Source: an uncultured Gammaproteobacteria bacterium (GTDB lineage: Bacteria; Patescibacteriota; Microgenomatia; UBA1406). From it: a DNA stretch of 64,000 bases. The position numbers and the translations under genes were made by a program. Position 1 is the first letter of the stretch. Each line of letters starts with the position of its first letter. Positions 14,214-64,000 of the stretch are shown piece by piece. The notes beneath the pieces were generated by a model. The model did not search any database. It was not told the origin of the DNA and saw nothing but the letters and a program-made list of their open reading frames with translations. The stretch covers positions 17,369 to 81,368 of the forward strand of contig CAYPVH010000008.1 in the NCBI GenBank assembly GCA_964414145.1, written 5' to 3'.

Positions 14214-14287
14214 GGGCCCGTAGCTCAGCTGGCTAGAGCGTTCGCATGGCATGCGAAAGGCCACCGGTTCAAGTCCGGTCGGGTCCA
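14214..14287 (+). tRNA. tRNA-Ala (anticodon GGC)
   Basis: Acceptor GGGCCCG/CGGGTCC with the G3:U70 alanine identity pair. Anticodon stem TTCGC/GCGAA with loop ATGGCAT. T-arm ACCGGTTCAAGTCCGGT. Confidence 0.95.
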
Positions 14288-25284: not shown

Positions 25285-26421
25285 ATGAAAATACTTCTTA
25301 TACACAACTACTATAGACAATACGGAGGAGAGGAAACATATTTCAAAATACTAGTTAAAATTTTAAGAGAGAAAAAGCACAAAACTACAATTTATACAAA
25401 AAATAGTTCTGAGATAGTTGGCAGTAAAGATAAAATCTTAGCGGCATTTAGTCTTATTTTTAACAACAAAGAATACCATAGGCTTAGTAGATTGCTGGTA
25501 AGAGAAAGACCCGACATAGTTCATATAAATAACATTTACCCATTGATTGGCCCAGCAATTTTCTGGGCATGCAAGAAAAATAAGATACCAATAGTTCAGA
25601 CGATACACAATTATCGGTACCTATGCCCCAAAGGAACGCTTTTTAGAAAAAATAAGGTTTGTGAATTGTGTACAAATAGTACTTTTGCAGTACATTCAAT
25701 TATCTACTCTTGCTATGCAAATTCCCGACTAGCATCTCTTTTTTTAACCATCTCTCTTTACTTGCATAGAGTAAGTGGTGTATACAAAAAAATACATTTT
25801 ATTTTTCCTACAGAATTTATTTCTAAATATATTTGCGATAAGCTTCCAGAAGTAAAAGAAAATTCGATAATATTAGCTAATCCTATAGACGAATTCAAAC
25901 CTACTACACAAAATATAGATCTCAATGACAAAGATTATTATTTATGTTTTGGAAGAATTAGTGACGAAAAAGGAATTGGTAGACTTGTTAAAAACTTCAG
26001 ATATCTTAGAGATAAGAAATTAATAGTCGTTGGTAAAAATTCATCCATGCTCTCTACAAAAAACACACCAAATATAAAAACTATTGATTTTATAACTAGA
26101 GATAAAATCTTTCACCTAATAAAGAACTCTTTAGCTGTTATACTACCCTCATTATGGTATGAAGTTTTACCTTATGCGCTATTAGAAACTATTTCTATGA
26201 ATAAAGCAGTTATTGTTTCTAATAAAGCATTAAGCATAATAAGAAGTAAGAACTTAGATTTTAAATTTATAACATACAATCCCGATAGCTTAAGCAGCCT
26301 TAAAAAGGCGATTAGTGAATCTGGTAAGAAGTCTTTTGTTAAAACAAAAATAAATATTTCGAAAAAATATTATGAAAAACTTATTAAATTCTATGAAAAA
26401 ATTGTTATTGAAAATAAATAA
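25285..26421 (+). CDS. GT-B glycosyltransferase (family 4/1-like)
   Basis: MKILLIHNYYRQYGGEE N-terminus and a C-terminal SLWYEVLPYALLETISMNKAVIVSN (E-x7-E-like region). Confidence 0.8.
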   Translation: MKILLIHNYYRQYGGEETYFKILVKILREKKHKTTIYTKNSSEIVGSKDKILAAFSLIFNNKEYHRLSRLLVRERPDIVHINNIYPLIGPAIFWACKKNKIPIVQTIHNYRYLCPKGTLFRKNKVCELCTNSTFAVHSIIYSCYANSRLASLFLTISLYLHRVSGVYKKIHFIFPTEFISKYICDKLPEVKENSIILANPIDEFKPTTQNIDLNDKDYYLCFGRISDEKGIGRLVKNFRYLRDKKLIVVGKNSSMLSTKNTPNIKTIDFITRDKIFHLIKNSLAVILPSLWYEVLPYALLETISMNKAVIVSNKALSIIRSKNLDFKFITYNPDSLSSLKKAISESGKKSFVKTKINISKKYYEKLIKFYEKIVIENK

Positions 26422-27646
26422 TCTAAAGTATCTAAGCTTTATATTAGTAATGTCGCTGATTATAACCAGACTTCCACCTTTCTATATCATCCCCTATAAG
26501 TACCGTTTTTTTACATCTCACTCAATTGTAAAAGTCTTTCACTTCATATTACTTTTTTTCCTCTTAAAAAATAACGGTAAGGAACTTAGTGAAATATATA
26601 GTAAAAATAAAATATATTTGAATCTTATTGTTGTGTATTTTTTAATTCAATCTATTTCAGTAATTACTGCACTTGATATTAATGCATACCTAAACTCATT
26701 TCAGACCGTTGTAATTACATATACTATTTTCATTAATTCAATATTACTTTTAAGTAAAACAAAATACCCTTTAATAAAAATAAGTTTTTTTATCAGAAAA
26801 TTTGCCATCTTAATTATTTTTCTCGAAATTATATTCTTTATTTTTAATAAGCACTTATTACCCCTATCGTTTCTACAAAATGAATACTTGGATGCAATAA
26901 TGTACAATATCGACAGACAAAGATATACGCTTGAGCTTAATCCAGAAACACTACTTCCGTTTGTTTTTATCTCCACCAGTAAATATACAAATGTTATCCT
27001 GGTAACGCTTGTTGCATTTACTAGCTTCCTTTCAAACTTCCGTAGTCGTTTAATACTTCTGTTTTTCTCTTTGATTCTAATGGTTCGCTTATATTCAAAG
27101 GAAATAAATCAGAAATTAATAATCACACTGACAATAATCTTAGTTCCTTTATTAGTTTTAGTTAGTAATGAAATTTTCTCTTCTAATGTATTGCGCCGTT
27201 TTTCAGAAATCATTACTAGTAAACGTCAAGATTATCGAATTTTATCTATTAATAAAACATTTGATATTATCAAAAAATCACCTCTCTTAGGAGTTGGTTT
27301 AGGAAACTATGACAGTATTTATAGAGATAATAAATCAAATAATTCTTTATTACTTCCAAAATACGCAAAAAATTATACAAACTTGGTTTCAAAGTCGCCG
27401 CATAATATTTTTTTGAGTTCTCTATCAGAAACTGGAGTCATTGGTTTTATTTCCTTATCTATATTAATCATCTATTTTTTAAAGTTTGATATTTATTTAA
27501 TAAAACAAAAAAATAAACAACTAATACCTTATATAATTTCTGCTTGGTCAACTTTTATATTTACACTTTTTAATCCGTCACATACAATTTTTGTTATTGG
27601 TTGGTTCTGGTTTATGAGAGCAATAGTTTTAATTTATAATAAATAA
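26372..27646 (+). CDS. O-antigen ligase/polymerase (Wzy)-like membrane protein
   Basis: Polytopic. GVGLGNY and SPHNIFLSSLSETGVIGFISL motifs. The start is uncertain (50-nt overlap with the upstream gene; alternative ATGs at 26393 and 26450). Confidence 0.65.
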   Translation: MKNLLNSMKKLLLKINNLKYLSFILVMSLIITRLPPFYIIPYKYRFFTSHSIVKVFHFILLFFLLKNNGKELSEIYSKNKIYLNLIVVYFLIQSISVITALDINAYLNSFQTVVITYTIFINSILLLSKTKYPLIKISFFIRKFAILIIFLEIIFFIFNKHLLPLSFLQNEYLDAIMYNIDRQRYTLELNPETLLPFVFISTSKYTNVILVTLVAFTSFLSNFRSRLILLFFSLILMVRLYSKEINQKLIITLTIILVPLLVLVSNEIFSSNVLRRFSEIITSKRQDYRILSINKTFDIIKKSPLLGVGLGNYDSIYRDNKSNNSLLLPKYAKNYTNLVSKSPHNIFLSSLSETGVIGFISLSILIIYFLKFDIYLIKQKNKQLIPYIISAWSTFIFTLFNPSHTIFVIGWFWFMRAIVLIYNK

Positions 27647-28684
27647 ATGATTCTTATTACAGGTTCACTAGGCTTAATTGGTTTTGAATCTACAAAATTT
27701 TTTTTAGACAAGGGATTTGAAGTTATTGGCATCGACAATAACGCAAGGGCCGAATTATTCAATATCCAAACCCACTACAATCATAAACTTAATTTTTTAA
27801 AAAACAAATACCAGAATCTTTATAAACATTTCCACATCGACATCCGAAATCAAGATGAAGTAGAAAAAATATTTACAAAATATAAAGATAAAACCAAAGC
27901 TATTATTCATACCGCTGCACAAACTTCACATGACTGGGCAAAAAAAGCCCCACAGACCGACTTCTCAATAAATGCAGTTGGAACCTTAAACTTACTAGTG
28001 TTATTTAAAAAATACTGCCCAAAGGCGATATTTATTTATACTTCGACAAACAAAGTTTATGGTGATAAAGTAAATCAACTTTCGTTTATTAAAAATAGTA
28101 ACAGGTACGATTTGCCAGAAACAGCAAAATACTACGACGGGGTAAATGAGTCGATGAGTATTGATAATTCAACGCATAGCTTATTTGGAGTATCAAAAGT
28201 GTCTGCTGATCTGTTGGTGCAGGAATACGGGAGATATTTTGGTTTAAAAACAGGAGTATTTCGGCTTGGAGTTGTTACGGGAAGTAATCAGGAAGGCGCC
28301 ATATATCAGGGGTATTTGTCGTATTTTGCAAAACTGGTAAAAGAAAGTAAACAGATAAACATTCTTGGCTACAAAGGAAAACAAGTAAGAGACGTTATTC
28401 ATGCCCACGACGTTGCTACCGCTTTTTATGAATTCATAAAGAAACCTAAAAAAGGAGAGATTTATAATTTGGGGGGCGGTAGGGAGAATAGTATTTCAAT
28501 AAATGAAATTCTTACCAAGATAAAAAAGTTCACAAAGAAAAAAATTTGGACACAATATAAAAATACACCTAGAAAAGGTGATCACAAGTGGTGGATTACC
28601 GATACTTGTAAGTTTAGAAAAGACTACCCAAAATGGAACAAAAAATATTCACTAAATAAGATTATTAAGGAGGTTTTTGTTTAA
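27647..28684 (+). CDS. NAD-dependent epimerase/dehydratase (SDR), CDP-paratose-2-epimerase-like
   Basis: MILITGSLGLIGFES (GxxGxxG). Catalytic YTSTNKVYG / YGVSKVSADL (YxxxK). IYNLGGGRENSISINEIL. Confidence 0.85.
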   Translation: MILITGSLGLIGFESTKFFLDKGFEVIGIDNNARAELFNIQTHYNHKLNFLKNKYQNLYKHFHIDIRNQDEVEKIFTKYKDKTKAIIHTAAQTSHDWAKKAPQTDFSINAVGTLNLLVLFKKYCPKAIFIYTSTNKVYGDKVNQLSFIKNSNRYDLPETAKYYDGVNESMSIDNSTHSLFGVSKVSADLLVQEYGRYFGLKTGVFRLGVVTGSNQEGAIYQGYLSYFAKLVKESKQINILGYKGKQVRDVIHAHDVATAFYEFIKKPKKGEIYNLGGGRENSISINEILTKIKKFTKKKIWTQYKNTPRKGDHKWWITDTCKFRKDYPKWNKKYSLNKIIKEVFV

Positions 28685-32017: not shown

Positions 32018-32824
32018 TTAATTTATATCGGCAACTAGGTAATTCTCAAACTGAAAACTGGGCAAGTTTAGATTTAAACTGCGCCCTTTTTTTAGTTCTT
32101 GTTCATAACCATATACCCAGTTACCCTTACTTTGCTGCAATTTAATTTTAGCCTTTACTGTTACCGATTGCCTGGGTTCGGTATAGGCTGGGTATTCGTA
32201 GTGGTTAGTGGTGTCTTTTGATTCCTTAGCAAGAACTTCAAAAACTACTTCTTCGCCGTCAAAGTACTTTTCACCTACTTGAATTGAATCGGCTTCCCAG
32301 GGCATAGCTAAACTCTTGTAAAGAGTAACTGTTTTTTCAACCCATTGTTCTTGAGGCTTTTTTTTAGAAACAGCCGTGACCGTACCGGTAACTTCGGTTG
32401 TAGGGAAACTTAATTCAATAGGTGCCCCAACAACTAACCTATCCCGATTAAAACTATAGCCTTCCTTTTTATTGCCATTTACCTTGAGTTTTAAAATTAG
32501 GTAGATATCATATTGGTTGGAACCCCACCAAGGGTAAGAACGAACCGAAATTATTTCTGCATTATTCCCGCGCAGGCCCTTGTCGGCCATACCTTTTTTT
32601 AACCCGTCAACCAACCAAACCGGAGCATGGTTAGTATTTGCCCACCACATACCTTGTGCTACCTTCACTCGAGTGTAAACATACTTTGGTGGAACAACAA
32701 AGAGTTTATAAAAAGATACAATTGCAACAAAACCAATAGCAGCAAAAAAAATCAGAATAAAGTAGTTGTCCTTAGCAAAGAGAAGCAATTTTTTTGTGAC
32801 CGATTTATTCTTTTTGAAGAACAT
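32018..32824 (-). CDS. N-terminally anchored hypothetical protein
   Basis: Probable start ATG 32824 (MFFKKNKSVTKKLLLFAKDNYFILIFFAAIGFVAIVSF). No family recognised. Confidence 0.5.
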   Translation of the reverse strand: MFFKKNKSVTKKLLLFAKDNYFILIFFAAIGFVAIVSFYKLFVVPPKYVYTRVKVAQGMWWANTNHAPVWLVDGLKKGMADKGLRGNNAEIISVRSYPWWGSNQYDIYLILKLKVNGNKKEGYSFNRDRLVVGAPIELSFPTTEVTGTVTAVSKKKPQEQWVEKTVTLYKSLAMPWEADSIQVGEKYFDGEEVVFEVLAKESKDTTNHYEYPAYTEPRQSVTVKAKIKLQQSKGNWVYGYEQELKKGRSLNLNLPSFQFENYLVADIN

Positions 32825-32926
32825 TAAAGAGTAGTATACATGAATATAATTTAAAATTAAAAATGCAAAATTAAAAAAATCAAGCTCCAAAAAACAATTT
32901 CCAAACAAATCACAAATTACAAACAA

Positions 32927-33640: not shown

Positions 33641-34240
33641 ATGCAAAGAATAGTTGCTTTAATGCTTTTAGGCTTACTGTTCCCTATAATTGGCTTTCTT
33701 TACCTACTGGTCAAGCTAACCTCTCGCGGCCCATTTATATTTAACCAGAAAAGATGGGGCAAGAATAAAAAACCCTTTTTTATGTACAAAATTCGCACCA
33801 TGATAGAAAACGCCGAAGAATTAAAGCCTAAACTAAACAACCAAAATGAAGCCAATGGGCCGGTATTTAAAATTAGGCACGACCCAAGGTACACTAGAAT
33901 AGGAAAAATATTGTCTCATAGTGGGATTGATGAAATTTTACAGCTAATAAACATTGTTAAGGGCGAAATGGCTTTTGTAGGGCCGCGGCCTTTACCTATT
34001 GATGAGGCAAAAAAAGTGCCCGAAAAGTACAACAAACGCTTTTCCGTTTTGCCCGGTATAACCTCATTGTGGGTAGTTAACGGGGCTCATAACTTAACCT
34101 TTGACCAATGGATGCAAAGCGACATAGATTATATAAACCAAAAAACCAGCCAGTTAGATATGATTATATTAGCTAAAACATTGGCAATTATAGTTGGGCA
34201 ACTAACTAAAATACAGCTTAAATATGAAAAAACACACTAA
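33641..34240 (+). CDS. small monotopic phosphoglycosyl transferase (bacterial sugar transferase family, PglC/WbaP C-terminal type)
   Basis: SRGPFIFNQKRWGKNKKPFFMYKIRTM, NGPVFKIRHDPRYTRIG, LQLINIVKGEMAFVGPRPLP. Confidence 0.9.
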   Translation: MQRIVALMLLGLLFPIIGFLYLLVKLTSRGPFIFNQKRWGKNKKPFFMYKIRTMIENAEELKPKLNNQNEANGPVFKIRHDPRYTRIGKILSHSGIDEILQLINIVKGEMAFVGPRPLPIDEAKKVPEKYNKRFSVLPGITSLWVVNGAHNLTFDQWMQSDIDYINQKTSQLDMIILAKTLAIIVGQLTKIQLKYEKTH

Positions 34241-34993: not shown

Positions 34994-35497
34994 TTAGTTA
35001 ACCTTGACTACTGCTACCCCGGTTATTTGAATGGCTTTGGTTTTATCCAGTTCCCTTACAATTTTCATTGCTACCGTGTCGCCTGGTTTTAACGCTTCAA
35101 AAGCAAAAGGCTTTTCCTGACCCATTTCCAAAACATATGCCTTCACGTTTTCCATTTCTGCTTCTGTAAAATAGAAGTCTACGTTTTTGCCTTTTTCAAG
35201 CTCTAATGACAGCTTGGCATAATAACCTAAGTTTTGTAAGGTTTTGTTTGGTTTGGCAATAATTTCGGTAATTTTGCTTTGATAGCTGGTAGTAACATTG
35301 GTAGAGGTAATAATACCTTTGTAAAGCATGTCGTCGTAACCTTCAAGGGCGGTAACCGAACAAAGTTTTTCGTCTTTAGTAGCTTGTGCCAATTCTTGGT
35401 ACTCGGCTATTTTGCCCCGTAAGTGCGCCAAAAGGGCAATTTCGGCGACAGCTACAACAACTAAAACCAGAACCAGAGAAGTATATTTTTTATTCAT
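34994..35497 (-). CDS. N-terminally anchored hypothetical protein, paralogue of 36833..37339
   Basis: Same size and architecture as 36833..37339. Shared C-terminal block LKPGDTVAMKIVRELDKTKAIQITGVAVVKV vs IKPGDKIKIMLEADLVKHPKDSIIKCSIIKV. Confidence 0.55.
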   Translation of the reverse strand: MNKKYTSLVLVLVVVAVAEIALLAHLRGKIAEYQELAQATKDEKLCSVTALEGYDDMLYKGIITSTNVTTSYQSKITEIIAKPNKTLQNLGYYAKLSLELEKGKNVDFYFTEAEMENVKAYVLEMGQEKPFAFEALKPGDTVAMKIVRELDKTKAIQITGVAVVKVN

Positions 35498-35573: not shown

Positions 35574-36824
35574 TTAACGCTTAGTTACTTTTTGATATAA
35601 AACCCAAAAAAAAGCAAAAAATACACTTGGTTTTACAAAAACTAAAATCCGCCGCCAAATAGGCTGAGGTGAAAAGATAAACAGGTAAGCAAAGCGCCAA
35701 ACACCGGCTTTAATTCTAGACAAGTTGTCAAAAATTGGTGTTGTTTTTACTACCCATCTAACAATATAGTAGGCTAATTTCGCTTTTGGTTTTATTAGGT
35801 TTAGAAAATTATTAGGAATCTTAGTTTGGTAGTATTTGTTAAGAAGAACAAAGGCAGGATAAACAAAGTTTTGCAAAGAATAGTGTTTAACTAGTTTAGA
35901 CAGCTCATTCCAATCTATATTTGCTTTTAAAGCTTCATTTTTAACAATTTGATTGAAAAAAATGTAGTTGGAATAACCACGATAATTATAGTGAAATAAA
36001 CGCAGTGCTAAATATAACAATAAATAGTCTATCGATAAAACTGGTAATTGCTCGTTCTTAACTTTCATCATTTTTTTTGAATTGAAAACCTGTTGCTGTA
36101 GGCTTTGAAGAAGTTTTTGAGGATAAAAACTATTTAACTTACCCATCTCTGTCATTTGAAACACCAACTCTTGATGCAGACTAATGGTGACATTATAATT
36201 ATTTATTACCTTGCAAAAAACTAACTTTGGTTGGTAATTTTCCTGTTTAACTTTAGAAGAAAACAAGCCTTTCTTTAGCTGTTTATACCCTAGGCTTTGA
36301 ACTATCTGCTTTGCTTTCCCAATATTACTAGACGTAACTAAAATATCACAATCAGTACAAAGGCTATGAGGTCGACCATTATTGTAGTAAACATAAAGAG
36401 GCAACCCTGTTAAAAAAATATAACTTAATTTTTCCCTAGCAAACAGCCGGTTCAATTTTATAATATCCTTAAGGTATCGATCCAGGTAAATTGAATACAG
36501 ATAGTTTATATTCAACTCTTTTTTACCTCGTTTTATTTTGGTTACCTTACCAATTATTTGATGCTCATAAACTCGACCATCGCTTTTTAGGTTATTATCT
36601 CCTTTGGTAATTGAATAGTTATTAGTTTTATAGACAAGACGGTGCACCATAAACTGCTTTTTAATTTCAACTAAAACTAGGTCATTAGTTGAGAGATCGG
36701 AATAATCTACTCCCTTAAAAAATAAATAGTCTTTATCTAGTAATAAGGGCAACATACTTATTCCATTTGATTGAAGGGGGTAGTTACTGCGGATTACGCT
36801 CTTAATTATTTCTTTTTTTTTCAA
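35574..36824 (-). CDS. fusion of an S26/S24-type (SipW-like) serine peptidase domain and a PF14907-like uncharacterised nucleotidyltransferase domain
   Basis: N-terminal: NGISMLPLLLDKDYLFF...MVHRLV...ITKGDNNLKSDGRVYEHQIIGKV (SM..P / HR / KGDNN motifs of signal peptidase I, SipW type). Then LTGLPLYVYYNNGRPHSLCTDCDILVTSSNIGKAKQIVQSLGY (R...D.DILV pattern of NTP_transf_5). Confidence 0.6.
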   Translation of the reverse strand: MKKKEIIKSVIRSNYPLQSNGISMLPLLLDKDYLFFKGVDYSDLSTNDLVLVEIKKQFMVHRLVYKTNNYSITKGDNNLKSDGRVYEHQIIGKVTKIKRGKKELNINYLYSIYLDRYLKDIIKLNRLFAREKLSYIFLTGLPLYVYYNNGRPHSLCTDCDILVTSSNIGKAKQIVQSLGYKQLKKGLFSSKVKQENYQPKLVFCKVINNYNVTISLHQELVFQMTEMGKLNSFYPQKLLQSLQQQVFNSKKMMKVKNEQLPVLSIDYLLLYLALRLFHYNYRGYSNYIFFNQIVKNEALKANIDWNELSKLVKHYSLQNFVYPAFVLLNKYYQTKIPNNFLNLIKPKAKLAYYIVRWVVKTTPIFDNLSRIKAGVWRFAYLFIFSPQPIWRRILVFVKPSVFFAFFWVLYQKVTKR

Positions 36825-36832
36825 ACAATAAC

Positions 36833-37339
36833 TTAAACTTTTATGATACTACACTTAATAATACTGTCTTTTGGGTGTTTAACTAAATCAGCTTCTAACA
36901 TTATTTTTATTTTGTCTCCAGGTTTTATTTGGTCTTGACTAATCACAACATGGCTGTTTCCCCTTTTTTCATAGTATGTTATTTTTTCAAGTCCCTCTTT
37001 GCTAATATGAATTTTATTTTCTTTTCCGTTATTTTGAATAAAATAAATGGTCAATTCTGCTACAAAACCATACTTTCCCCCAGTATTATGTGGCTTATTT
37101 CTGAAATTCTTCAGCGCTCCGTTGTAAGTTACAGATAGGCGAACATCTTCAATCACCTCTTCTTTTTGTTGGTCTATTAAAAACATAACAAATTCGCCAT
37201 TAATTCTTGCAGCATTACTATATTCTGCTTTTTTATTTGTAAAAAAACTAAAATTACCCCAAAGATATATGATCTCGGCTATTATTACCAATGTAAAAAA
37301 GGAGATTAATAAAGTAAGGATTGATTTTACTCTCTTCAT
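36833..37339 (-). CDS. N-terminally anchored hypothetical protein, paralogue of 34994..35497
   Basis: TM ILTLLISFFTLVIIAEIIYLW. C-terminal IKPGDKIKIML block shared with 34994..35497. Confidence 0.55.
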   Translation of the reverse strand: MKRVKSILTLLISFFTLVIIAEIIYLWGNFSFFTNKKAEYSNAARINGEFVMFLIDQQKEEVIEDVRLSVTYNGALKNFRNKPHNTGGKYGFVAELTIYFIQNNGKENKIHISKEGLEKITYYEKRGNSHVVISQDQIKPGDKIKIMLEADLVKHPKDSIIKCSIIKV

Positions 37340-37346
37340 ACTAAAA

Positions 37347-37375
37347 ATTATGTTTTAAACAGCAAGTTTTGTCAA
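37347..37375 (-). promoter_or_regulatory. sigma70-type promoter (TTGACA-17-CATAAT), probably giving a leaderless mRNA for 36833..37339
   Basis: Minus strand reads TTGACAaaacttgctgtttaaaaCATAATttttagtATG. The -35 is at 37375..37370 and the -10 at 37352..37347. The ATG at 37339 is only 7 nt after the -10. Confidence 0.5.
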
Positions 37376-37409
37376 TAAAATGTTAGTATATTCAATAAAA
37401 AAATAAAGC

Positions 37410-38153
37410 ATGGTTCATAAAACTTTAATTACTTTTTCCAAATACCAAATTTTACTTAAAAGCAAATCTAAACAACTAATTAGTAAACTAGGAAAAGAAA
37501 TTGAGCTTAAAAAAACAAGAAAGAGCTCTACTGTTGATGGTACAATTGACCTTGATAAAGTAATGAGGTCAGTTGATCTCAAACAACCCTCTTTATTAAT
37601 AAAGAAAAAAATAACTCAGCTTCGCTTTTTTACTTATTGCTTATCGGCTTGCATTGAAGCTAAACTAACAGCAAGAAATACAGTTTTTTTACATGCAAGC
37701 TCATACTTCATAAACAACAAAGCTTATTTATTTTTAGGTCCATCTGGAGCCGGCAAAACAACTATTATCAATACAGTTTCCAAAAATAAAAGACTTAGTA
37801 ATGATACTTCAATAATAATTAAAAAAAATAATTTGTTTTATGTATTTGCTTCTCCTTTTGATAAAAATGAAATTGTTTACAAAAATCAAAAAAGAGCATT
37901 GTTAACCGATATTTTTATATTAAATCAATCAGACAAATTTGAGATTAAAGAATTAGAAACAGATGCCAAAATTAAATCTCTTCTGGAAAATAATTATTTG
38001 ACAATGAATATTGATAACTTAGCTAAGGTTAGAATAAGGTATGATAAGTTAAAACTTATAAAGACACTGCTGCAACTTGTTGGAAATATTCGAATTAGAA
38101 AACTAAATTTTCCAAAAAAAATCAATTTTTTAAATCAACTAGATAATTCTTAG
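37410..38153 (+). CDS. HPr-kinase-C-terminal-like P-loop protein (HprK-related kinase)
   Basis: VFLHASSYFINNKAYLFLGPSGAGKTTIINTVSKNKRLSNDTSII matches the lHAs..(g)kavLllGpSGsGKST...l.sDD pattern of HprK-related kinases seen in RiPP loci. Confidence 0.55.
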   Translation: MVHKTLITFSKYQILLKSKSKQLISKLGKEIELKKTRKSSTVDGTIDLDKVMRSVDLKQPSLLIKKKITQLRFFTYCLSACIEAKLTARNTVFLHASSYFINNKAYLFLGPSGAGKTTIINTVSKNKRLSNDTSIIIKKNNLFYVFASPFDKNEIVYKNQKRALLTDIFILNQSDKFEIKELETDAKIKSLLENNYLTMNIDNLAKVRIRYDKLKLIKTLLQLVGNIRIRKLNFPKKINFLNQLDNS

Positions 38154-39375
38154 CAATAAATGTTTCAAGAAAAACAATTAAATCCTTTTTTAATCGCTTT
38201 TCGCTAATATTATATTTTTTCTTTAGTTGAGAAGTTAGCAGGCTATATTTGGCTTTTTTTTGATCAATAATTTTTTGCCAGATAAATGACCCTGTAGCAT
38301 TCAATTCCATAAGCTCACCGTTAACACCAAATAAAACGATGCTTTTGTTGACTCTCTTCCATTGAACATTGCTATTAATATAGTAGACTTTTTTTATATC
38401 TATATTTTTTACCAAGGCCCTCTGATTTTTAAATACTAAAAATTGACCAACCTGACACACATAGTTAATTAGTTGTCGTCTTTTTTTTTCAAACAGCTTT
38501 TTAAGATTTATCAATTGGGAAGTGAATATATAAGATTCTTTTATGTTGTGTTTTTGAAAGGAAATTTTTCTTAAGGTACAGCTATTGCAAACTCCGCAGT
38601 GTTTAAATAATCTTCGATCACAGCTCCAAGTATTCTTAATTGAAACACCGGCTTTACTAATAAAACTAATTAATTGATCTCTTGTGTAAAAAAACCCACT
38701 CTTGTCATCTATTGGTGCAATTATCTGCCAACGCCAATCACCTAAAACATAACAAAATTTTAATATAGACATGCGAATCGCTGTTAAGGTGGCTTCTCTT
38801 GATAGTGACCTGTCTTCGGGAACAACTCCAATAAATACAGTTTGGGTTTGTACTTTTTCTTCCAATAACTGTTGTGCATAACCAAAAGCATATGATAAAT
38901 AAATGTAAGTTCTATTATAATCTCCCGGAATAAGTAGGTAATGAGATGTTTTATTTTTTTCACTGCGTTTACCCAAGTTTGCTGTGACTAGGTTAATATC
39001 TTTTGAAAATGGTACAGCCTTATTTTTTGCGGTGTCTCCATAGTCTTTCTTTCTATATTTAGTAGGATGAAATAGTGATGGAAACTTTTTTTTAAATATC
39101 TTTTCATAGTAATTTATTGCCTTTTTTTCACCAACCTTAAATTTTTGTTTTGAATAAACATGTAGTGGATATACATTTAGTTTATACTTTGTTAACAACA
39201 AATACCAAAGACATATAGAATCTATTCCTCCCGATAGCATAAGAATTACAGCGGTTTTTTTAGGGGGTATTTTGATTGCACTTCCCCTTTTTTTTACCAA
39301 TAATTTATTTATTGACTCCAAGAGAGTCTTGTCTTCAATGTTATTATTGTTAAATATTAATTTAAAGTTAGTCAT
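38122..39375 (-). CDS. QueC-like PP-loop ATPase fused to a C-terminal PqqD-family (RiPP recognition element) domain
   Basis: AVILMLSGGIDS (SGGxDS PP-loop). IPGDYNRTYIYLSYAFGYAQ, VFIGVVPEDRS and WSCDRRLFKHCGVCNSCTLRK align by eye with the QueC motifs (VPGRN..., IFIGVN..D, WSCY...CGxCDSCxLR zinc knuckle). The last ~85 aa, VLFGVNGELMELNATGSFIWQKI...YNISEKRLKKDLIVFLETFIAKNYLV, is a classical PqqD pattern. Confidence 0.75.
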   Translation of the reverse strand: MTNFKLIFNNNNIEDKTLLESINKLLVKKRGSAIKIPPKKTAVILMLSGGIDSICLWYLLLTKYKLNVYPLHVYSKQKFKVGEKKAINYYEKIFKKKFPSLFHPTKYRKKDYGDTAKNKAVPFSKDINLVTANLGKRSEKNKTSHYLLIPGDYNRTYIYLSYAFGYAQQLLEEKVQTQTVFIGVVPEDRSLSREATLTAIRMSILKFCYVLGDWRWQIIAPIDDKSGFFYTRDQLISFISKAGVSIKNTWSCDRRLFKHCGVCNSCTLRKISFQKHNIKESYIFTSQLINLKKLFEKKRRQLINYVCQVGQFLVFKNQRALVKNIDIKKVYYINSNVQWKRVNKSIVLFGVNGELMELNATGSFIWQKIIDQKKAKYSLLTSQLKKKYNISEKRLKKDLIVFLETFIAKNYLVDLKN

Positions 39376-39389
39376 TAACTATATAAAGA

Positions 39390-39418
39390 TTGACAAAGCT
39401 AGGCTAATTATATAACAT
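39390..39418 (+). promoter_or_regulatory. sigma70-type promoter upstream of the two small ORFs
   Basis: TTGACA 39390-39395. -10 candidates are TATAAC (39411-39416, 15-nt spacer) or TAACAT (39413-39418, 17-nt spacer). Confidence 0.45.
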
Positions 39419-39455
39419 GACGATAAGGTTGGTATTTATTTATAGAATTGGCAAC

Positions 39456-39590
39456 ATGACAAAGAAAAATAAGAAAAGCAAATACGTAAAGCCTTCCATC
39501 AAAAAAAATATAAAGGTTCACTTTAAGCGTAAATTATTCGACTATGATTATAGTGAACTATTATTAAGCCAGAGTAATGAAGAACAATGA
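39456..39590 (+). CDS. candidate RiPP precursor peptide A (44 aa)
   Basis: Own translation: MTKKNKKSKYVKPSIKKNIKVHFKRKLFDYDYSELLLSQSNEEQ. Below the track cutoff. Shares KY(V/T)KPSIK with peptide B through synonymous codon differences. An in-frame upstream ATG at 39417 lies inside the predicted promoter. Confidence 0.55.
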   Translation: MTKKNKKSKYVKPSIKKNIKVHFKRKLFDYDYSELLLSQSNEEQ

Positions 39591-39691
39591 AAAAAAGTAA
39601 TAATCAAAAACTAATTCAGGCAAAAAAAAAATATACAAAACCCAGTATTAAGACGTCAAAAATAAAGATCAATATTCAAACTTGGTATTAA
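39587..39691 (+). CDS. candidate RiPP precursor peptide B (34 aa)
   Basis: Own translation: MKKSNNQKLIQAKKKYTKPSIKTSKIKINIQTWY. Its ATG overlaps the stop of peptide A (ATGA). The 3' end overlaps the convergent radical SAM gene by 23 nt. Confidence 0.55.
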   Translation: MKKSNNQKLIQAKKKYTKPSIKTSKIKINIQTWY

Positions 39692-40655
39692 TCAAAAAAC
39701 CTAAACAGGGTCCGGGACATTTGTCAATTGAGTGACCATAGAAAGGACATCCCTGGCATTTCTTAAGCATTAATTTGTTCCACAAATCAAAACGTTGTTT
39801 GATGATTTTTTTGTAAACCAAACGAATATTTTTGTGATACAAGCTAATTCTTGATTTGTTATATAGCGAGAAACAATGAAAGGCTGTATTGTCAACGGCA
39901 ATATCCATACTACTGGGCTTACCATAGCAACCGTAGCCAGGTAATATTACTTTGTGATAGTTAATATTCTGAACTTGACTGTCATTAAACATACATCGAG
40001 TAAAACCGCAATTAAGCACAATTTTTGTTTTGTTATTTACCAGTTTTTTAAGGCGATTCACTAGGTAGGTAAGTTTATTTCCAATTTGATTAAAGTCACT
40101 AAAAGAATACCAGTTTTTTTCCTCGGCAATTGGATTAGCTAATCCAATTCTTATAGTCTTTATTTTATCCATTGCCTTAAAATCAATTTTTTGAAGATAT
40201 TGCTTGAAGTTTGTATAAGGGTCAATTGTAATTGACAATGTAACCTCAGTTTGTGCTGCAGCTTTATTTATTGTTTTAGCAATAAGTCTATGTGTACTTT
40301 TTTTGTCAATAAAAGCAGGAGTAGTAATATTTACCACTAAGCTTAGCTTTGGATAGAATTTTTGAAGCAAATCCTCTGTTTTTGGGGAAAAGAGACCATT
40401 AGTAAAGATGAGGATAGAGCTAAATTTTTTTGTTGAATATGTAAGAATGTCGTTGAGTTGAGAATGAAGGGTAGGTTCGCCACCCATTAGCTTTAGAGTA
40501 TCAATTTTGTTTTGAGAGATTTTTTTTATTATTGATTTAGCTTCTTTTAAACCTATCTCTTTGTTTATCCTATTGCAGCCCATCTCTTTTTTGGCAAAGC
40601 AGAAAGTACAGTTTTGATTACAAAAATTGGTGATTAATAAGTTTGGAGAGTTCAT
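39669..40655 (-). CDS. radical SAM enzyme with a C-terminal SPASM/twitch-like Cys cluster
   Basis: LLITNFCNQNCTFCFA (CxxxCxxC). Later cysteines NCGFTRC, YGCYG, FHCF and CQGCPFYGHSIDKCPGPC. Confidence 0.85.
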   Translation of the reverse strand: MNSPNLLITNFCNQNCTFCFAKKEMGCNRINKEIGLKEAKSIIKKISQNKIDTLKLMGGEPTLHSQLNDILTYSTKKFSSILIFTNGLFSPKTEDLLQKFYPKLSLVVNITTPAFIDKKSTHRLIAKTINKAAAQTEVTLSITIDPYTNFKQYLQKIDFKAMDKIKTIRIGLANPIAEEKNWYSFSDFNQIGNKLTYLVNRLKKLVNNKTKIVLNCGFTRCMFNDSQVQNINYHKVILPGYGCYGKPSSMDIAVDNTAFHCFSLYNKSRISLYHKNIRLVYKKIIKQRFDLWNKLMLKKCQGCPFYGHSIDKCPGPCLGFLINTKFEY

Positions 40656-40659
40656 ATTG

Positions 40660-41760
40660 TTAAACCATAAACTCGCGGTAGTTTTGCTTGGTAACTTTAA
40701 AGCTGGTTCCTTCGTGATTCAGTGTTTTCCAGGCCACACGACGCACTACTCCCTGCACAATTCGTTTTAAGGTACGAATTCCCGAGTCGTAGCCCAGCGG
40801 GCGAATTAAAATTGGCCAAACGTCTTCGTCTACCTTTATGTTGTCGCTACTAAGACCGGCCTCTTTAATAGCAGAGGGCAGTAAATATTCTTTACCAATA
40901 TGGACTTTTTCCTCATCACTATAAGAAGGCATCTGAATTACTTCCATGCGGTCAATTACGGCTGTGGCTACCTTATTGACATTGTTGGCTGTTGCCACAA
41001 ATATGGCTTTGGAAAGGTTAAATGGAAAATCTATATAGTGATCGGTGAAGGCTTTATTTTGTTCGGGGTCGAGAAGTTCTACCAGAACACCCATGATTTC
41101 CTGGCGCTTGTCGTCGCTAACCCGATCAAGCTCGTCAAGTAAAATTACCGGATTGTTTACGTTAACTCGGCGCAGAGCTTTAATAACAATTCCCGGTTCG
41201 GCTTCGCTATGAACCCGGGATAACCCCCGTAAGTCCAGGGCAGACGCTAAGCCACCAAAAGGAATACGAATTAATTGCCGGTTTAGAGCTTCAGCAACAG
41301 AGATTGCCATCGTGGTTTTACCTGTCCCCACAAGGCCTACAAAACACAAAATTGGGGCCCGAAGTTCTAGCTTATCTGAGCTTTCTGTTGTTTTGTTATT
41401 TTTTAAAGAAGTAAAATTACCTTCGCTTAGGGGTACGCCACTCTTTTTTCGTTGTAAAATAATGACCGACAGGTATTCTAAAATGCGCTGTTTGATTTCG
41501 TTTAAACCATAATGGTTTTTATTGAATGTAAGTTTAGCCCTATCAATATTAAGAATATCCTGACTACTGGTATTCCAGGGTAGATGAACAAGCCAGTTTA
41601 TGTATGCTACTGTTTGTTCGTAAAAACCGAAACTACTTGAAGAACCGGCTCGAAGTGCAAATGATAATCTTTCTAATGATCCCATTAGCTTGTTTTGTAG
41701 CTCTTCAGGTAATTTAGCTTGCAAGACTGTTTGCCTGAGTTTAACCACTTCAGTTTCCAT
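40660..41760 (-). CDS. Lon-type AAA+ ATPase module lacking both the Lon N-terminal and protease domains
   Basis: NKNHYGLNEIKQRILEYLSV, ILCFVGLVGTGKTTMAISVAEALNRQLIRIPFGGLASALDLRGLSRVHSEAEPGIVIKAL and PVILLDELDRVS parallel the Lon A-domain (DHYGLEKVKERILEYLAV / GPPGVGKTS / LDEIDK). The ORF ends about 100 aa after sensor 2, so there is no S16 protease domain. Confidence 0.8.
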   Translation of the reverse strand: METEVVKLRQTVLQAKLPEELQNKLMGSLERLSFALRAGSSSSFGFYEQTVAYINWLVHLPWNTSSQDILNIDRAKLTFNKNHYGLNEIKQRILEYLSVIILQRKKSGVPLSEGNFTSLKNNKTTESSDKLELRAPILCFVGLVGTGKTTMAISVAEALNRQLIRIPFGGLASALDLRGLSRVHSEAEPGIVIKALRRVNVNNPVILLDELDRVSDDKRQEIMGVLVELLDPEQNKAFTDHYIDFPFNLSKAIFVATANNVNKVATAVIDRMEVIQMPSYSDEEKVHIGKEYLLPSAIKEAGLSSDNIKVDEDVWPILIRPLGYDSGIRTLKRIVQGVVRRVAWKTLNHEGTSFKVTKQNYREFMV

Positions 41761-45235: not shown

Positions 45236-45859
45236 CTATTGCCCCATAAAATCCTTACAGGCCTGCGAATCGCCACTATGACCTGTGCACCAATTTGGCG
45301 ATGCTGTTCCACATTTATCACAATTAGGTCCTGGGCACTTCCAACAAGACTCTTCTGGTTCTTCACTTCCCCCTGTACCTGGATTTGGGTTCGATCCACC
45401 CGGACACACCATGTTTCCAAATAGCATAAAACAACCACTACCAAAACCACTACCAACTCCAGTCGTACCACCCCTTGTTCCTCTGCCAACCGACCCAGAT
45501 ATTCCACCCGTTTTTATTTGCTTACAAATATAATCTGTTGTTTTACATCTAAATCGGCCGTTATTCGGGCTACAATCTGTGTCTTGAGCCCTTTGGCCGC
45601 AAACACAGCTACTACCTAATCTTGGCCCACTACCTTGGCTTTCGTTACTATCTGCCCAATACCTGTTTTCGTTACCAATCATCCAACGGCACCCATCAAA
45701 ACTAGCCCTGGAATTGGAATTTAATTTTTTGTTTAAATAAAGCACTGTAACTAAGGTAAGAATTGTTAAAACCAGGACAATAATTTTAAAAGGAGACGCA
45801 GAAATATTTTTCTTTGAGGTTAATTTTGTTCTGCTTTTCTTAACTGTTTTTTTTGCCAT
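45236..45859 (-). CDS. N-terminally anchored Cys- and Gly-rich hypothetical protein
   Basis: TM FKIIVLVLTILTLVTVLYL, then about 20 Cys and Gly-rich runs (GGISGSVGRGTRGGTTGVGSGFGSGC; CWKCPGPNCDKCG). Locally higher GC than the neighbours. Confidence 0.55.
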   Translation of the reverse strand: MAKKTVKKSRTKLTSKKNISASPFKIIVLVLTILTLVTVLYLNKKLNSNSRASFDGCRWMIGNENRYWADSNESQGSGPRLGSSCVCGQRAQDTDCSPNNGRFRCKTTDYICKQIKTGGISGSVGRGTRGGTTGVGSGFGSGCFMLFGNMVCPGGSNPNPGTGGSEEPEESCWKCPGPNCDKCGTASPNWCTGHSGDSQACKDFMGQ

Positions 45860-45998: not shown

Positions 45999-47672
<1,674 letters not shown>

Positions 47673-47705
47673 TTATATTTGAACTTTTAATTTTAAATAT
47701 TAATT

Positions 47706-48002
47706 TTACCCTACTATTGCCATTACGTCTTTTTGCTCAACAAGGAGCCATTCTTCGTTATTTACTTTAATTTCATTACCAGCCCATTTTTTGTAGAGCA
47801 CCTTATCGCCTTTTTTAACAATCATTTTCGTTTTTTTACCACTTTCTGCTTCTTCACCCGAGCCAACCGCCATAATTTGACCAACCTGTGGCTTTTCCTT
47901 GGCTGTGTCTGGTAAGACAATCCCCGAAGGAGTTTTTTTATCTTCTTCTAAGGGTTTAACTAGTACGTAGTTGAATAAGGGTTTGATACTGGAACCTTTC
48001 AT
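47706..48002 (-). CDS. groES: co-chaperonin GroES (Cpn10)
   Basis: IKPLFNYVLVKPLEEDKKTPSGIVLPDTAKEKPQVGQIMAVGSG... Lies directly upstream of groEL. Confidence 0.95.
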   Translation of the reverse strand: MKGSSIKPLFNYVLVKPLEEDKKTPSGIVLPDTAKEKPQVGQIMAVGSGEEAESGKKTKMIVKKGDKVLYKKWAGNEIKVNNEEWLLVEQKDVMAIVG

Positions 48003-63252: not shown

Positions 63253-63326
63253 GGGCCTGTAGCTCAGTTGGCTAGAGCGTCCGCCTTGCACGCGGAAGGT
63301 CACCGGTTCGAATCCGGTCAGGTCCA
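63253..63326 (+). tRNA. tRNA-Ala (anticodon UGC)
   Basis: Acceptor GGGCCTG/CAGGTCC with G3:U70. Anticodon stem TCCGC/GCGGA with loop CTTGCAC. T-arm ACCGGTTCGAATCCGGT. Confidence 0.95.
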
Positions 63327-63434: not shown

Positions 63435-63487
63435 GCAAAAATTGATTAAAAAATACATCTTAATAACTCTTGAGTAGAATACAGGAG

Positions 63488-64000
63488 TTGGGGAAAGTCA
63501 ACGCAAATGGTGGATGCCTTGGCGCTAGAAGCTGATGAAGGACGTGTGCTAAACCACGAAAACGCCGGTGAGACGTTATGCAGTCATTAACAACCGACGG
63601 TATCCGAATGGGAAAACCCGCTCTTTTAGTAATAATCGAGCACTCTGCTTTGCAGGGAAGGAACCCGGAGAACTGAAACATCTAAGTACCCGGAGGAAAA
63701 GAGACCACGAGGTATTCCGTTAGTAGCGGCGAGCGAAAACGGAGAAGCCCAAACTTTCGATTTATCGAAGGTGTTTAGGACCCACATAATAATTAATCTT
63801 AAATAGTAAAAAATCTTGGAATGGATTGCCATAGAAGGTGAAAGCCCTGTATATGAAATTTTTGATTTTTTAGGTGGAGTTCCAGAGTACCACGGAGCAC
63901 GGCAACTCTGTGGGAAGATGGCCGGGCCACCGGCCAAGGCTAAATACTTCTAGTGACCGATAGTGAACTAGTACTGTGAAGGAAAGGTGAAAAGTCCCCC
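63488..64000 (+). rRNA. rrl: 23S rRNA, 5' ~510 nt (continues past the window)
   Basis: GGTGGATGCCTTGGC, GATGAAGGACGTG, CCGAATGGGAAAACCC, GAACTGAAACATCTAAGTACCCGGAGGAAAAG and AGTAGCGGCGAGCGAA are the universal 23S domain I strings. The 5' end is placed by alignment to E. coli by eye (+/- 10 nt). Confidence 0.95.

Follow-up and report, generated by a model that had tools for sequence, protein, structure and literature searches.

The 64,000-nucleotide stretch of contig CAYPVH010000008.1 (GenBank assembly GCA_964414145.1) analyzed here, referred to throughout as the window, carries two small overlapping open reading frames (ORFs), A and B, between a gene for a QueC-family, ATP-dependent enzyme with a fused PqqD-like domain and a gene for a radical S-adenosylmethionine (rSAM) enzyme. 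Judging from their sequence conservation in related loci, the two ORFs quite probably encode precursor peptides of RiPPs (peptides synthesized by ribosomes and modified post-translationally) that are recognized by a RiPP recognition element (RRE). The surrounding genes are most likely a RiPP cluster related to the linear polyphosphorylated peptide (LPP) systems, a group of RiPPs of Bacillota (Popov et al., Nat Commun 2026, PMC13381572), in which a QueC-like ATP enzyme is fused to the peptide-binding domain. Which enzyme acts on which peptide is something that we infer, and our confidence in any particular chemistry is low. An earlier note, made from the DNA letters of this stretch, had proposed the two ORFs as the substrate peptides of the QueC-PqqD and rSAM genes, and the conservation of the pair, the purifying selection that acts on it and the presence of a fitting RRE all speak for that proposal. 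The four genes in question are as follows.

39456..39590, plus strand: ORF A, putative A-type precursor peptide, 44 amino acids (aa), sequence MTKKNKKSKYVKPSIKKNIKVHFKRKLFDYDYSELLLSQSNEEQ; Lys-rich N-terminus, YVKP leader motif, ELLL (LLA-like) motif and short variable tail SQSNEEQ
39587..39691, plus strand: ORF B, putative B-type precursor peptide, 34 aa, sequence MKKSNNQKLIQAKKKYTKPSIKTSKIKINIQTWY; Lys-rich N-terminus, YTKP leader motif and C-terminal T-W-Y at +18 from the motif Tyr
38122..39375, minus strand: QueC-family PP-loop ATPase (residues ~40-290) with a lasso/LPP-type, PqqD-like RRE (~329-417), 417 aa
39669..40655, minus strand: rSAM protein with a C-terminal Cys-rich SPASM-like domain, 328 aa (Pfam Radical_SAM, Fer4_12)

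The peptide ORFs are held by the 293-nt gap (39376..39668) between the QueC-RRE and rSAM genes. They begin 81 nt away from where the QueC-RRE gene starts, lie divergently to it, and they run convergently with the rSAM gene, the last 23 nt of which are covered by ORF B. The ATG of ORF B overlaps the stop codon of ORF A (ATGA within caATGAaa). The positions of the ORFs, their junction and the gap all agree with the earlier description of this region, and Pfam agrees with its domain calls for both flanking genes. Its description of the ORFs as unannotated holds insofar as neither has been named, but both had already been called as genes on the 83,421-bp NCBI contig, one as P0278, a 57-aa version of ORF A that starts from an ATG at 39417, and the other as P0285, which is exactly ORF B. 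Comparison with homologous sequences favors the start of ORF A at 39456 over that at 39417. Neither peptide matches any Pfam or NCBIfam family even at E <= 10, and no homologues were found for two minus-strand frames of the same region (39408..39521 and 39564..39638), which are Phe-rich antisense readings of the Lys-rich peptides. The TTGACA promoter that had been placed ahead of the ORFs exists as a plus-strand match (39390..39418, TTGACA-17-TAACAT, a consensus match only) in the divergent intergenic region that is common to the QueC-like gene. It does not rise above chance, since this AT-rich region has no excess of promoter-like matches (2 observed versus 3.8 expected from shuffles), and for that reason it was given no weight. 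The GC content drops to 0.29 at window positions 36000-40000, the core of the cluster, coinciding with the Lys-rich peptide and enzyme genes; a second drop, to 0.27, occurs at 26000-28000, and the remaining window lies at roughly 0.30-0.47.

The two peptides share the motif K-Y-x-K-P-S-I-K, which is encoded as AAA TAC GTA AAG CCT TCC ATC AAA in A and as AAA TAT ACA AAA CCC AGT ATT AAG in B. The two DNA segments are identical at 14 of 24 nucleotides and the Ser codon family is switched (TCC versus AGT), so the codons agree with the earlier statement that the motif is conserved as protein and has diverged as DNA. The repeat search returned no direct repeat spanning both motif sites, and this result and the codon divergence rule out that the shared motif derives from a DNA-level repeat, an explanation that the earlier note had raised against itself.

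Related loci were gathered with both enzymes. A word-indexed search with the QueC-PqqD protein returned one relative, P0002 (contig L001), and an exhaustive HMMER search defined a QueC-like family of 161 representatives at E < 1e-30, about 60 of which have the fused C-terminal domain. A profile of 46 QueC-like sequences that was scanned over metagenomes yielded 25 loci, and the rSAM family (437 homologues) gave further loci through a genome scan and contig look-ups; the rSAM-profile genome scan was dominated by distant rSAMs and contributed 5 close loci. The related loci are mostly metagenomic and apparently derive from candidate-phyla bacteria and other uncultured lineages.

Both peptide types are present in about 20 non-redundant QueC-containing loci (L001; L003/L004/L095; L084; L087; L088; L091-L093; L096; L097; L099; L100; L105; L107; L108; L111; L115), which answers in the affirmative whether comparable small ORFs stand beside homologous enzyme genes elsewhere. 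Counting all related loci, about 25 non-redundant ones have the pair. Homologues of ORF A occur in more than 25 loci, and at least 16 have a B-type peptide whose last residues are x-Tyr, at +18 to +20. Most often the genes are arranged as QueC <-|-> A -> B, and overlap of A and B is frequent in the other loci, so that the tight coupling reported for the window recurs. In L003/L004/L095/L115, only B is divergent from QueC, and A comes after the rSAM gene. Locus L001 has two tandem small ORFs, divergent from its QueC-like gene, for a 50-aa peptide with NYQMPKI and ...DLELL... and a 30-aa peptide, MKKLNRKKNKNYIKPVLTLKKISLKVVTDY. No clear A or B peptides were seen in L101-L104, where the QueC-like protein is about 28-31% identical and apparently without an RRE.

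The A-type peptides are 35-55 aa long and have a Lys/Arg-rich N-terminus, an invariant Y-x-x-P and, ~24-29 residues past the Tyr, an LLA-like hydrophobic motif (ELLAA, DFLAT, VLLAT; ELLLS in the window), which is followed by a hypervariable tail of 2-11 residues. The B-type peptides (26-40 aa) have an A-like leader and a C-terminal [T/M/C]-x-Tyr whose terminal Tyr lies 18-20 residues past the motif Tyr; their endings include TWY, TDY, TGY, TSY, MDY, CSY, CNY and VTY. A variant designated B', which is found in four loci (L097 2935-3075, L098 228-341, L100 1373-1498 and L107 5632-5760), has K[F/Y/H][V/I]WGGxCSRxEKxC, or a shortened version of it, at its end in place of T-x-Tyr. All of the 28 A-type and 19 B-type sequences that were aligned keep the leader Y and P, and the motifs of the window, YVKPSI in A and YTKPSI in B, fit [Y/W]xxPx[L/V/I/F/A]. 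Conservation across the family does not extend to the segments that the earlier note had singled out as modified cores (HFKRKLFDYDY, the QTWY aromatic patch and the acidic tail of A), and the specific chemistry that it had proposed for them is for this reason not supported. What is conserved instead is the LLA-like motif in A and the C-terminal [T/M/C]-x-Tyr at a fixed distance in B.

That these are real genes is indicated by several measures. When the 2,412 six-frame segments of the window are searched with leave-one-out hidden Markov models (HMMs), which were built from the peptides of other loci with the window sequences excluded, the best match is ORF A (E 1.5e-8) in one case and ORF B (E 4e-4) in the other, and the peptide HMMs recover pairs on which they had not been trained in L108/L109, L111/L112 and L115. 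In more than 20 loci the peptide pair keeps its order, its position and its sequence, although identity is only 25-40%. Both peptide types are under purifying selection, with ratios of nonsynonymous to synonymous differences (pN/pS) of about 0.1-0.3 in informative orthologue pairs and of about 0.1 for the B-type, as listed here.

A-type, L003/L004: pS 0.66, pN 0.12
A-type, L004/L095: pS 0.52, pN 0.07
A-type, L097/L107: pS 0.54, pN 0.16
B-type, L001/L085: pS 0.24, pN 0.03
B', L097/L098: pS 0.61, pN 0.12

In the very close set L001/L085/L090, the changes in A concentrate in the C-terminal tail, the pattern that is expected of a variable RiPP core.

The 417-aa protein matches Pfam QueC (E 9.5e-13) and PqqD (E 1.2e-8), and its AlphaFold2 model (pLDDT 89, pTM 0.85) resembles two different groups of structures in Foldseek, the N-domain being closest to Cap9 (9nto_B, TM to target 0.79) and QueC (2pg3, 3bl5), and the C-terminal 85 residues to leader-bound TbiB1 (5v1v; TM 0.85, rmsd 1.4 Å). 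Profile matches in the PDB are to Cap9, TbiB1, LppB (9x8z_B, E 1.3e-7), PbaB1 (9x90_B), TfuB1 and QatC. The SGGxDS loop (SGGIDS in the window) and a Cys4 motif, C252-x7-C260-x2-C263-x2-C266, are invariant in the family alignment of 46 sequences, the latter with x7 versus the x8 of the QueC motif C(x)8CxxCxxC. The family also has conserved features of its own, namely an N-terminal FED...KRG extension and the motifs AYEYA, RESTL, GDWxWQ and DKTxY, and the NCBIfam QueC score of the window protein is 29 bits versus a cut-off of 150. In the RRE, the nearly invariant D398 aligns with an Asp of LppB (EEDIEAF) and with a Gln of the Trp-preferring PbaB1, residues that we take to be LppB D70 and PbaB1 Q79 after allowing for an N-terminal tag on the crystallized chains. 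According to Popov et al., D70 and Q79 discriminate between Tyr and Trp leaders (PMC13381572), and an Asp-type RRE beside Tyr-type leaders agrees with the Tyr/Asp pairing rule of that study. The modeled RRE fold and its Tyr-binding residue fit the Tyr-type leaders, and leader binding is predicted; with the invariant Y and P and the sequence matches of the domain, this upholds the earlier recognition of the shared motif as an RRE leader motif of the YxxP type. Some of the related loci encode discrete PqqD (RRE) genes.

The rSAM protein has the motif C12-x3-C16-x2-C19 and further conserved cysteines at C216/C221/C243/C261/C300/C303/C313/C317. Its AlphaFold2 model (pLDDT 90) has SuiB as its best match in Foldseek, followed among the top matches by SkfB, anSME and PqqE, and the profile match to 5v1q extends over nearly the full length. 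Unlike SuiB, which has an N-terminal RRE, it has no RRE of its own. A streptide-like crosslink would be compatible with SuiB as the best match of the modeled fold. Directly upstream of the rSAM gene (40660-41760, minus strand) is a Lon-like AAA+ module (Lon residues ~254-571) with no protease domain; this arrangement is repeated in L006 (72% identical) and is missing from the other related clusters, which usually have a penicillin-binding protein transpeptidase gene before the rSAM gene. On the other side of the peptide genes, the window holds the following further candidates for membership in the cluster.

35574..36824, minus strand: archaeal/endoplasmic reticulum-type signal peptidase I (SpI)-like domain fused to an NTP_transf_5 domain, candidate leader peptidase and tailoring enzyme
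37410..38153, plus strand: ScmC-family P-loop protein (GPSGAGKTT), candidate HprK-like peptide kinase
36833..37339, minus strand: 168 aa, N-terminal membrane anchor, without a known domain; related clusters have weakly similar genes
34994..35497, minus strand: 167-aa membrane-anchored distant paralogue of 36833..37339; cluster membership uncertain
32018..32926, minus strand: 302-aa DUF4330-like protein (Pfam DUF4330 below threshold)
33641..34240, plus strand: Bac_transf sugar transferase (Pfam E 1.8e-49), polysaccharide-locus context

The fusion protein at 35574..36824 matches Pfam NTP_transf_5 at E 1.6e-14, a family that we assume to be that of LppN. Its N-terminal 115 aa match NCBIfam sigpep_I_arch at E 1.6e-7, which is below the curated cut-off, and the isolated SpI-like domain reaches 24.8 bits with Pfam Peptidase_S24 against a cut-off of 23.3; a PDB sequence search with the protein gave no informative match. 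The SpI boxes of the window are GISMLP, VHR and KGDNN, and GxSMxP, HR and GDN are conserved in 15+ loci, in which the domain is either fused or stand-alone. Locus L111 (also L112) has two SpI-like domains, one stand-alone with intact Ser/His/GDN boxes (12235-12672) and one fused to NTP_transf_5 (15164-16396) that is without the catalytic His (VKR for HR; ADNE for GDN) and may be a pseudo-peptidase. The ScmC-like protein matches NCBIfam ScmC at E 0.0015 and PEPCK_ATP weakly; it is 34% identical (E 5e-32) to a gene of L111 that is labeled PF27840:ScmC, and it recurs in most of the related loci. For the DUF4330-like protein, tblastn finds 39-56% identity in L003, L083, L087, L097 and L098. The Bac_transf protein has neighbors of 57-60% identity in L099 and L107, and Bac_transf is also present in L110-L112. 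Because the SpI/NTP_transf_5, ScmC-like, DUF4330-like, small membrane-anchored, glycosyltransferase and Bac_transf genes recur with their order shuffled, we regard the genes of the cluster as probably linked in function. An LPP cluster combines an archaeal-type SpI, an RRE, an HprK-like kinase and a nucleoside triphosphate (NTP) transferase with YxxP leaders and a polysaccharide-locus context (PMC13381572), and it is the SpI/NTP-transferase and ScmC-like proteins, which the earlier note had missed, that put the present cluster next to this family.

Other members of the cluster family differ in their equipment. Genes for YcaO and nitroreductase-type dehydrogenase proteins are found in L108 (4620-6668), L113 (11366-12712), L114 (6653-8937) and L116 (17179-18978), and extra rSAM genes occur in L114 (one of them B12-binding) and L116. 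On this evidence, the cluster family looks more like a modular toolkit than like a single fixed pathway. Farther away in the window, a 207-aa protein (45236-45859, minus strand) has an N-terminal membrane/signal segment and a Cys/Gly-rich C-terminal half with about 17 Cys, counted by eye; a GroES/GroEL pair is at 45999-48002 (minus strand); tRNA genes are at 14214-14287 and 63253-63326 (both plus strand); and the latter stands before the 5' part of a 23S rRNA gene that runs off the end of the window (63487-64000, plus strand).

In the pathway that these features would make up, A and B would be co-transcribed and translationally coupled precursor genes. The RRE would bind the Y-x-x-P of both leaders and present the peptides to the enzymes; the SpI-like domain would cut off the leader; the kinase-like protein and the NTP transferase would decorate a hydroxyl residue, with phosphorylation by the kinase near the leader/core junction; the rSAM enzyme would install a radical modification on the A core or the Tyr; and the QueC-like domain would use ATP to adenylate a carboxylate and make an amide-type bond on the RRE-tethered peptide. 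The QueC-like enzyme has a ready substrate hypothesis because it is fused to a recognition domain and the putative substrate genes are next door. The best candidate for the carboxylate would be that of the C-terminal Tyr of B, 18-20 residues from the leader Tyr, and since the leader-to-C-terminus distance is fixed, the terminal carboxylate of B would be the most economical target.

The LPP systems offer a ruler for such distances. There, the SpI-like LppS receives the precursor from the RRE LppB and cuts after T(-1), 16 residues from the leader Tyr, and LppK polyphosphorylates Ser3 of the core, which is residue 19 counted from the Tyr (PMC13381572). In this register, the conserved Thr of the window's B is residue 17 and its terminal Tyr residue 19, counted from the leader Tyr; in the 20-residue B variants, Thr is often residue 16. 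By analogy, and provided that the LPP ruler is conserved, B would be a minimal precursor that consists of a leader and a 3-5 residue core, [L]-[T/M/C]-x-Tyr, and the core of A would include the LLA motif. That the RRE-tethered QueC-family enzyme catalyzes a peptide modification new to RiPPs is a tentative suggestion, to which we give less than even odds. The C-terminal Tyr carboxylate might be adenylated and converted into an amide or nitrile, or a B-derived T-x-Tyr might be joined to A; a ligation of a 7-deazaguanine carboxylate or another small carboxylate to a peptide amine, as might be expected by analogy with Cap9/QatC, is equally permitted by the data.

The idea that B is joined to A derives from the QueC-less relatives, in which a single A ends in Tyr, in comparison with the QueC clusters, where these features are divided over A and B. 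No B-type gene is present in the four QueC-less relatives (L005/L116, L110, L113 and L114), and A-types end in Tyr in six of six cases in QueC-less loci versus none of 23 in QueC-containing loci, counts that are not phylogenetically independent. The endings are SDDY, NCTY, LDAY, DCDGY, WEPY and YSNY, with examples at L113 11178-11369 and 16160-16318, L114 11040-11189 and L110 6878-7021. A PP-loop protein of the PAPS_reduct family (SGGKDS) is encoded in three of the four QueC-less loci, in L113 and L116 directly upstream of the peptide gene. Taken together, the counts suggest a functional connection between the terminal Tyr and the PP-loop enzyme. A 210-aa gene of L110 was also considered as PAPS_reduct-like, an assignment that was not supported. 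Separately, loci of Desulfosarcina, Syntrophobacteraceae and Acidobacteria contain distant relatives of the rSAM protein (22-30% identity), accompanied by small ORFs that have a KKxY-E-x-P leader and Tyr-run C-termini such as ..SYVYYYYSY, ..IVYYYYLF and ..NQYYY (L027 335-493, L038 615-806, L043 3119-3289, L051 3140-3292 and L034 1876-2058), and on their sequences these may be unrecognized precursors of SynChlorMet-type cassettes.

A number of findings weigh against the assignment of A and B to an RRE-dependent, LPP-like cluster. In the window the two ORFs are antisense to both neighboring genes. Locus L083, a QueC locus, has A and no B, and several loci that have the pair and QueC show no rSAM gene in 6 kb of flank, among them L099 and L107 (A+B or A+B'), the latter with 6 kb on each side; these loci also go against a simple pairing of one enzyme with one peptide. 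The ScmC-like protein has no Hpr_kinase match in Pfam and no PDB sequence match, and no transporter was found in the window, nor an ABC exporter among the neighbors examined. In comparison with E. coli QueC, the QueC-like domain has lost YxQxHxxE and YPDC and has kept only P-x-R of VPxRN, and because of the loss of the first two its substrate cannot be read from canonical QueC. Nor does the sequence of A give a readable core boundary, given how short (2-11 residues) and hypervariable the tail after the LLA motif is.

Three other explanations have to be set against this background. One would make B a disposable scaffold from which the C-terminal Tyr, together with the 1-3 preceding residues, is released as a small molecule in the manner of mycofactocin, pyrroloquinoline quinone (PQQ) or pearlin; activation of the C-terminal carboxylate would fall to the RRE-tethered QueC-like enzyme, and A would either be a product in its own right or a partner. 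We consider this unlikely, though deserving of attention, since B consists of little beyond a leader and [T/M/C]-x-Tyr-COOH, with a Tyr-Tyr spacing of 18-20 in about 16 loci and a variable penultimate residue, and its terminal Tyr lies as far from the leader Tyr as does the modified Ser3 in LppA. B-types are found only with a QueC-like gene, the QueC-less A-types end in Tyr (6/6 versus 0/23), and the rSAM protein has its fold in common with PqqE and other SPASM enzymes. Against this, the similarity to MftC and PqqE includes nothing specific beyond the SPASM fold (29 bits with the NCBIfam mycofactocin rSAM model versus a cut-off of 265), the B' subgroup ends in WGGxCSRxEKxC and not in Tyr, no downstream small-molecule enzymes were identified, and the co-occurrence counts suffer from the phylogenetic dependence already mentioned.

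Far less probable is a lasso peptide system in which A and B would be lasso precursors and the QueC-like enzyme would stand in for the Asn-synthetase-like cyclase. Lasso cyclases and QueC are both PP-loop ATP pyrophosphatases, the Y-x-x-P-x-[I/L] leader and the RRE fold are as in lasso B1 systems, and ORF A would have a Glu at core position 8 if cleavage occurred 17 residues past the Tyr. This Glu8 acceptor is not conserved, however, the Thr is off the lasso -2 register, and many A tails and all B cores (2-5 residues) are too short for a ring of 7-9 residues and a tail. The SpI-type peptidase of the cluster is, moreover, of the kind that defines the non-lasso LPP family (PMC13381572). With Pfam and NCBIfam, neither an Asn_synthase-type cyclase nor a transglutaminase-type B2 peptidase is detected in the window cluster, and the lasso system was rejected on the grounds of these missing enzymes and the short cores. 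There is next to no likelihood that the ORFs are chance frames in a non-coding, AT-rich spacer and that the motif is coincidental or a DNA repeat. Short ORFs do arise easily in a region of about 29% GC that is rich in Lys codons, and the promoter-like match is not above expectation, but the conservation of the pair in more than 20 loci at 25-40% identity, a pN far below pS, the absence of a repeat and the top ranks of both ORFs in the leave-one-out HMM searches together exclude chance ORFs and a DNA repeat.

If A and B are indeed precursors in an LPP-related cluster, LPP-type machinery would not be confined to Bacillota and would be widespread in small-genome, uncultured bacteria, with polysaccharide and cell-wall genes nearby. 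The QueC-like enzymes would then constitute a third, peptide-directed branch of the QueC family, after those for queuosine synthesis and anti-phage protein deazaguanylation. The B peptide would be an unusually minimal precursor (a leader and T-x-Tyr), and the split A+B pair and the single A-Tyr peptide would provide a clean contrast.

Among the known systems, the LPPs are the closest. As in the LPP clusters, there is a SipW-like, archaeal-type SpI as the candidate leader peptidase, a PqqD-type RRE that is related to lasso B1 proteins and has LppB (9x8z) as a direct sequence match, an NTP transferase and a P-loop kinase-like protein, and small precursor genes, one to three in number, whose products begin with a YxxP leader and vary at the C-terminus, all set among polysaccharide and cell-wall genes; the RRE has an Asp that aligns with the Tyr-binding Asp of LppB. 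LPPs are stated to be restricted to Bacillota, and QueC and radical SAM are not mentioned in their description (PMC13381572), whereas the hosts here are apparently candidate-phyla or other uncultured lineages, a SPASM rSAM is usual and YcaO is present in some relatives. The LPP leader consensus YxxPxVLxHQxIxFET|xxS is reduced here to YxxPx[I/L/V], with no HQxIxFET; the RRE is fused to a QueC-family ATPase and the SpI to an NTP transferase; the precursors come in two classes, of which one has almost no core and ends in T-x-Tyr; and the MsbA-like exporter was not seen among the neighbors examined. HprK-like kinases and NTP transferases are also typical secondary modifiers of paeninodin-like clusters (Popov et al., PMC13381572).

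With Cap9 of type IV CBASS (cyclic oligonucleotide-based anti-phage signaling system), QatC of QatABCD and QueC, the N-domain has in common the SGGxDS and Cys4 zinc motifs, and its best matches are Cap9 (9nto) and QueC (2pg3, 3bl5); like Cap9 and QatC, it evidently serves a polypeptide substrate and not just free 7-carboxy-7-deazaguanine. It differs in that the YxQxHxxE and YPDC motifs are missing, QatC-specific motifs were not seen, the N-terminal extension and motifs are its own, and it is fused to an RRE and encoded among RiPP genes, outside any defence or queuosine operon. Enzymes of the QueC family activate a carboxylate by adenylation and make amide or nitrile bonds from it, protein N-termini being among their targets, and the substrate motifs of canonical QueC are YxQxHxxE, VPxRN and YPDC; the 2026 survey of PF06508 covers QueC, QatC, Cap9, LarE, GMPS and others and has no RiPP-associated group (PMC13329287).

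Phosphorylated lasso peptides of the paeninodin type and the lasso B1 RREs (TbiB1, TfuB1/FusB1) resemble the present cluster in the RRE fold, the Y/WxxPx[L/V/I] leader and the types of accessory enzymes; the paeninodin kinase acts on a C-terminal residue. The cluster differs from them in that it has no lasso cyclase or B2 peptidase and in that its cores have too few residues for a lasso fold. Mycofactocin (MftA/B/C) and PQQ (PqqA/D/E) also combine a short precursor that has an essential Tyr at or near the C-terminus with a PqqD-type RRE and a SPASM rSAM, but there is no specific relationship of rSAM or peptide sequence, and the PP-loop, SpI and NTP-transferase proteins are extra here; in terms of function, this resemblance is a matter of speculation only. 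A literature search on QueC-RiPP/PqqD, SynChlorMet/ScmC and Patescibacteria RiPPs returned no description of the QueC-RRE fusion, of this peptide pair or of the cluster. What we rate as new is the combination, in an LPP-like cluster, of an RRE-tethered QueC-family enzyme, a SPASM rSAM and a two-class set of precursors.

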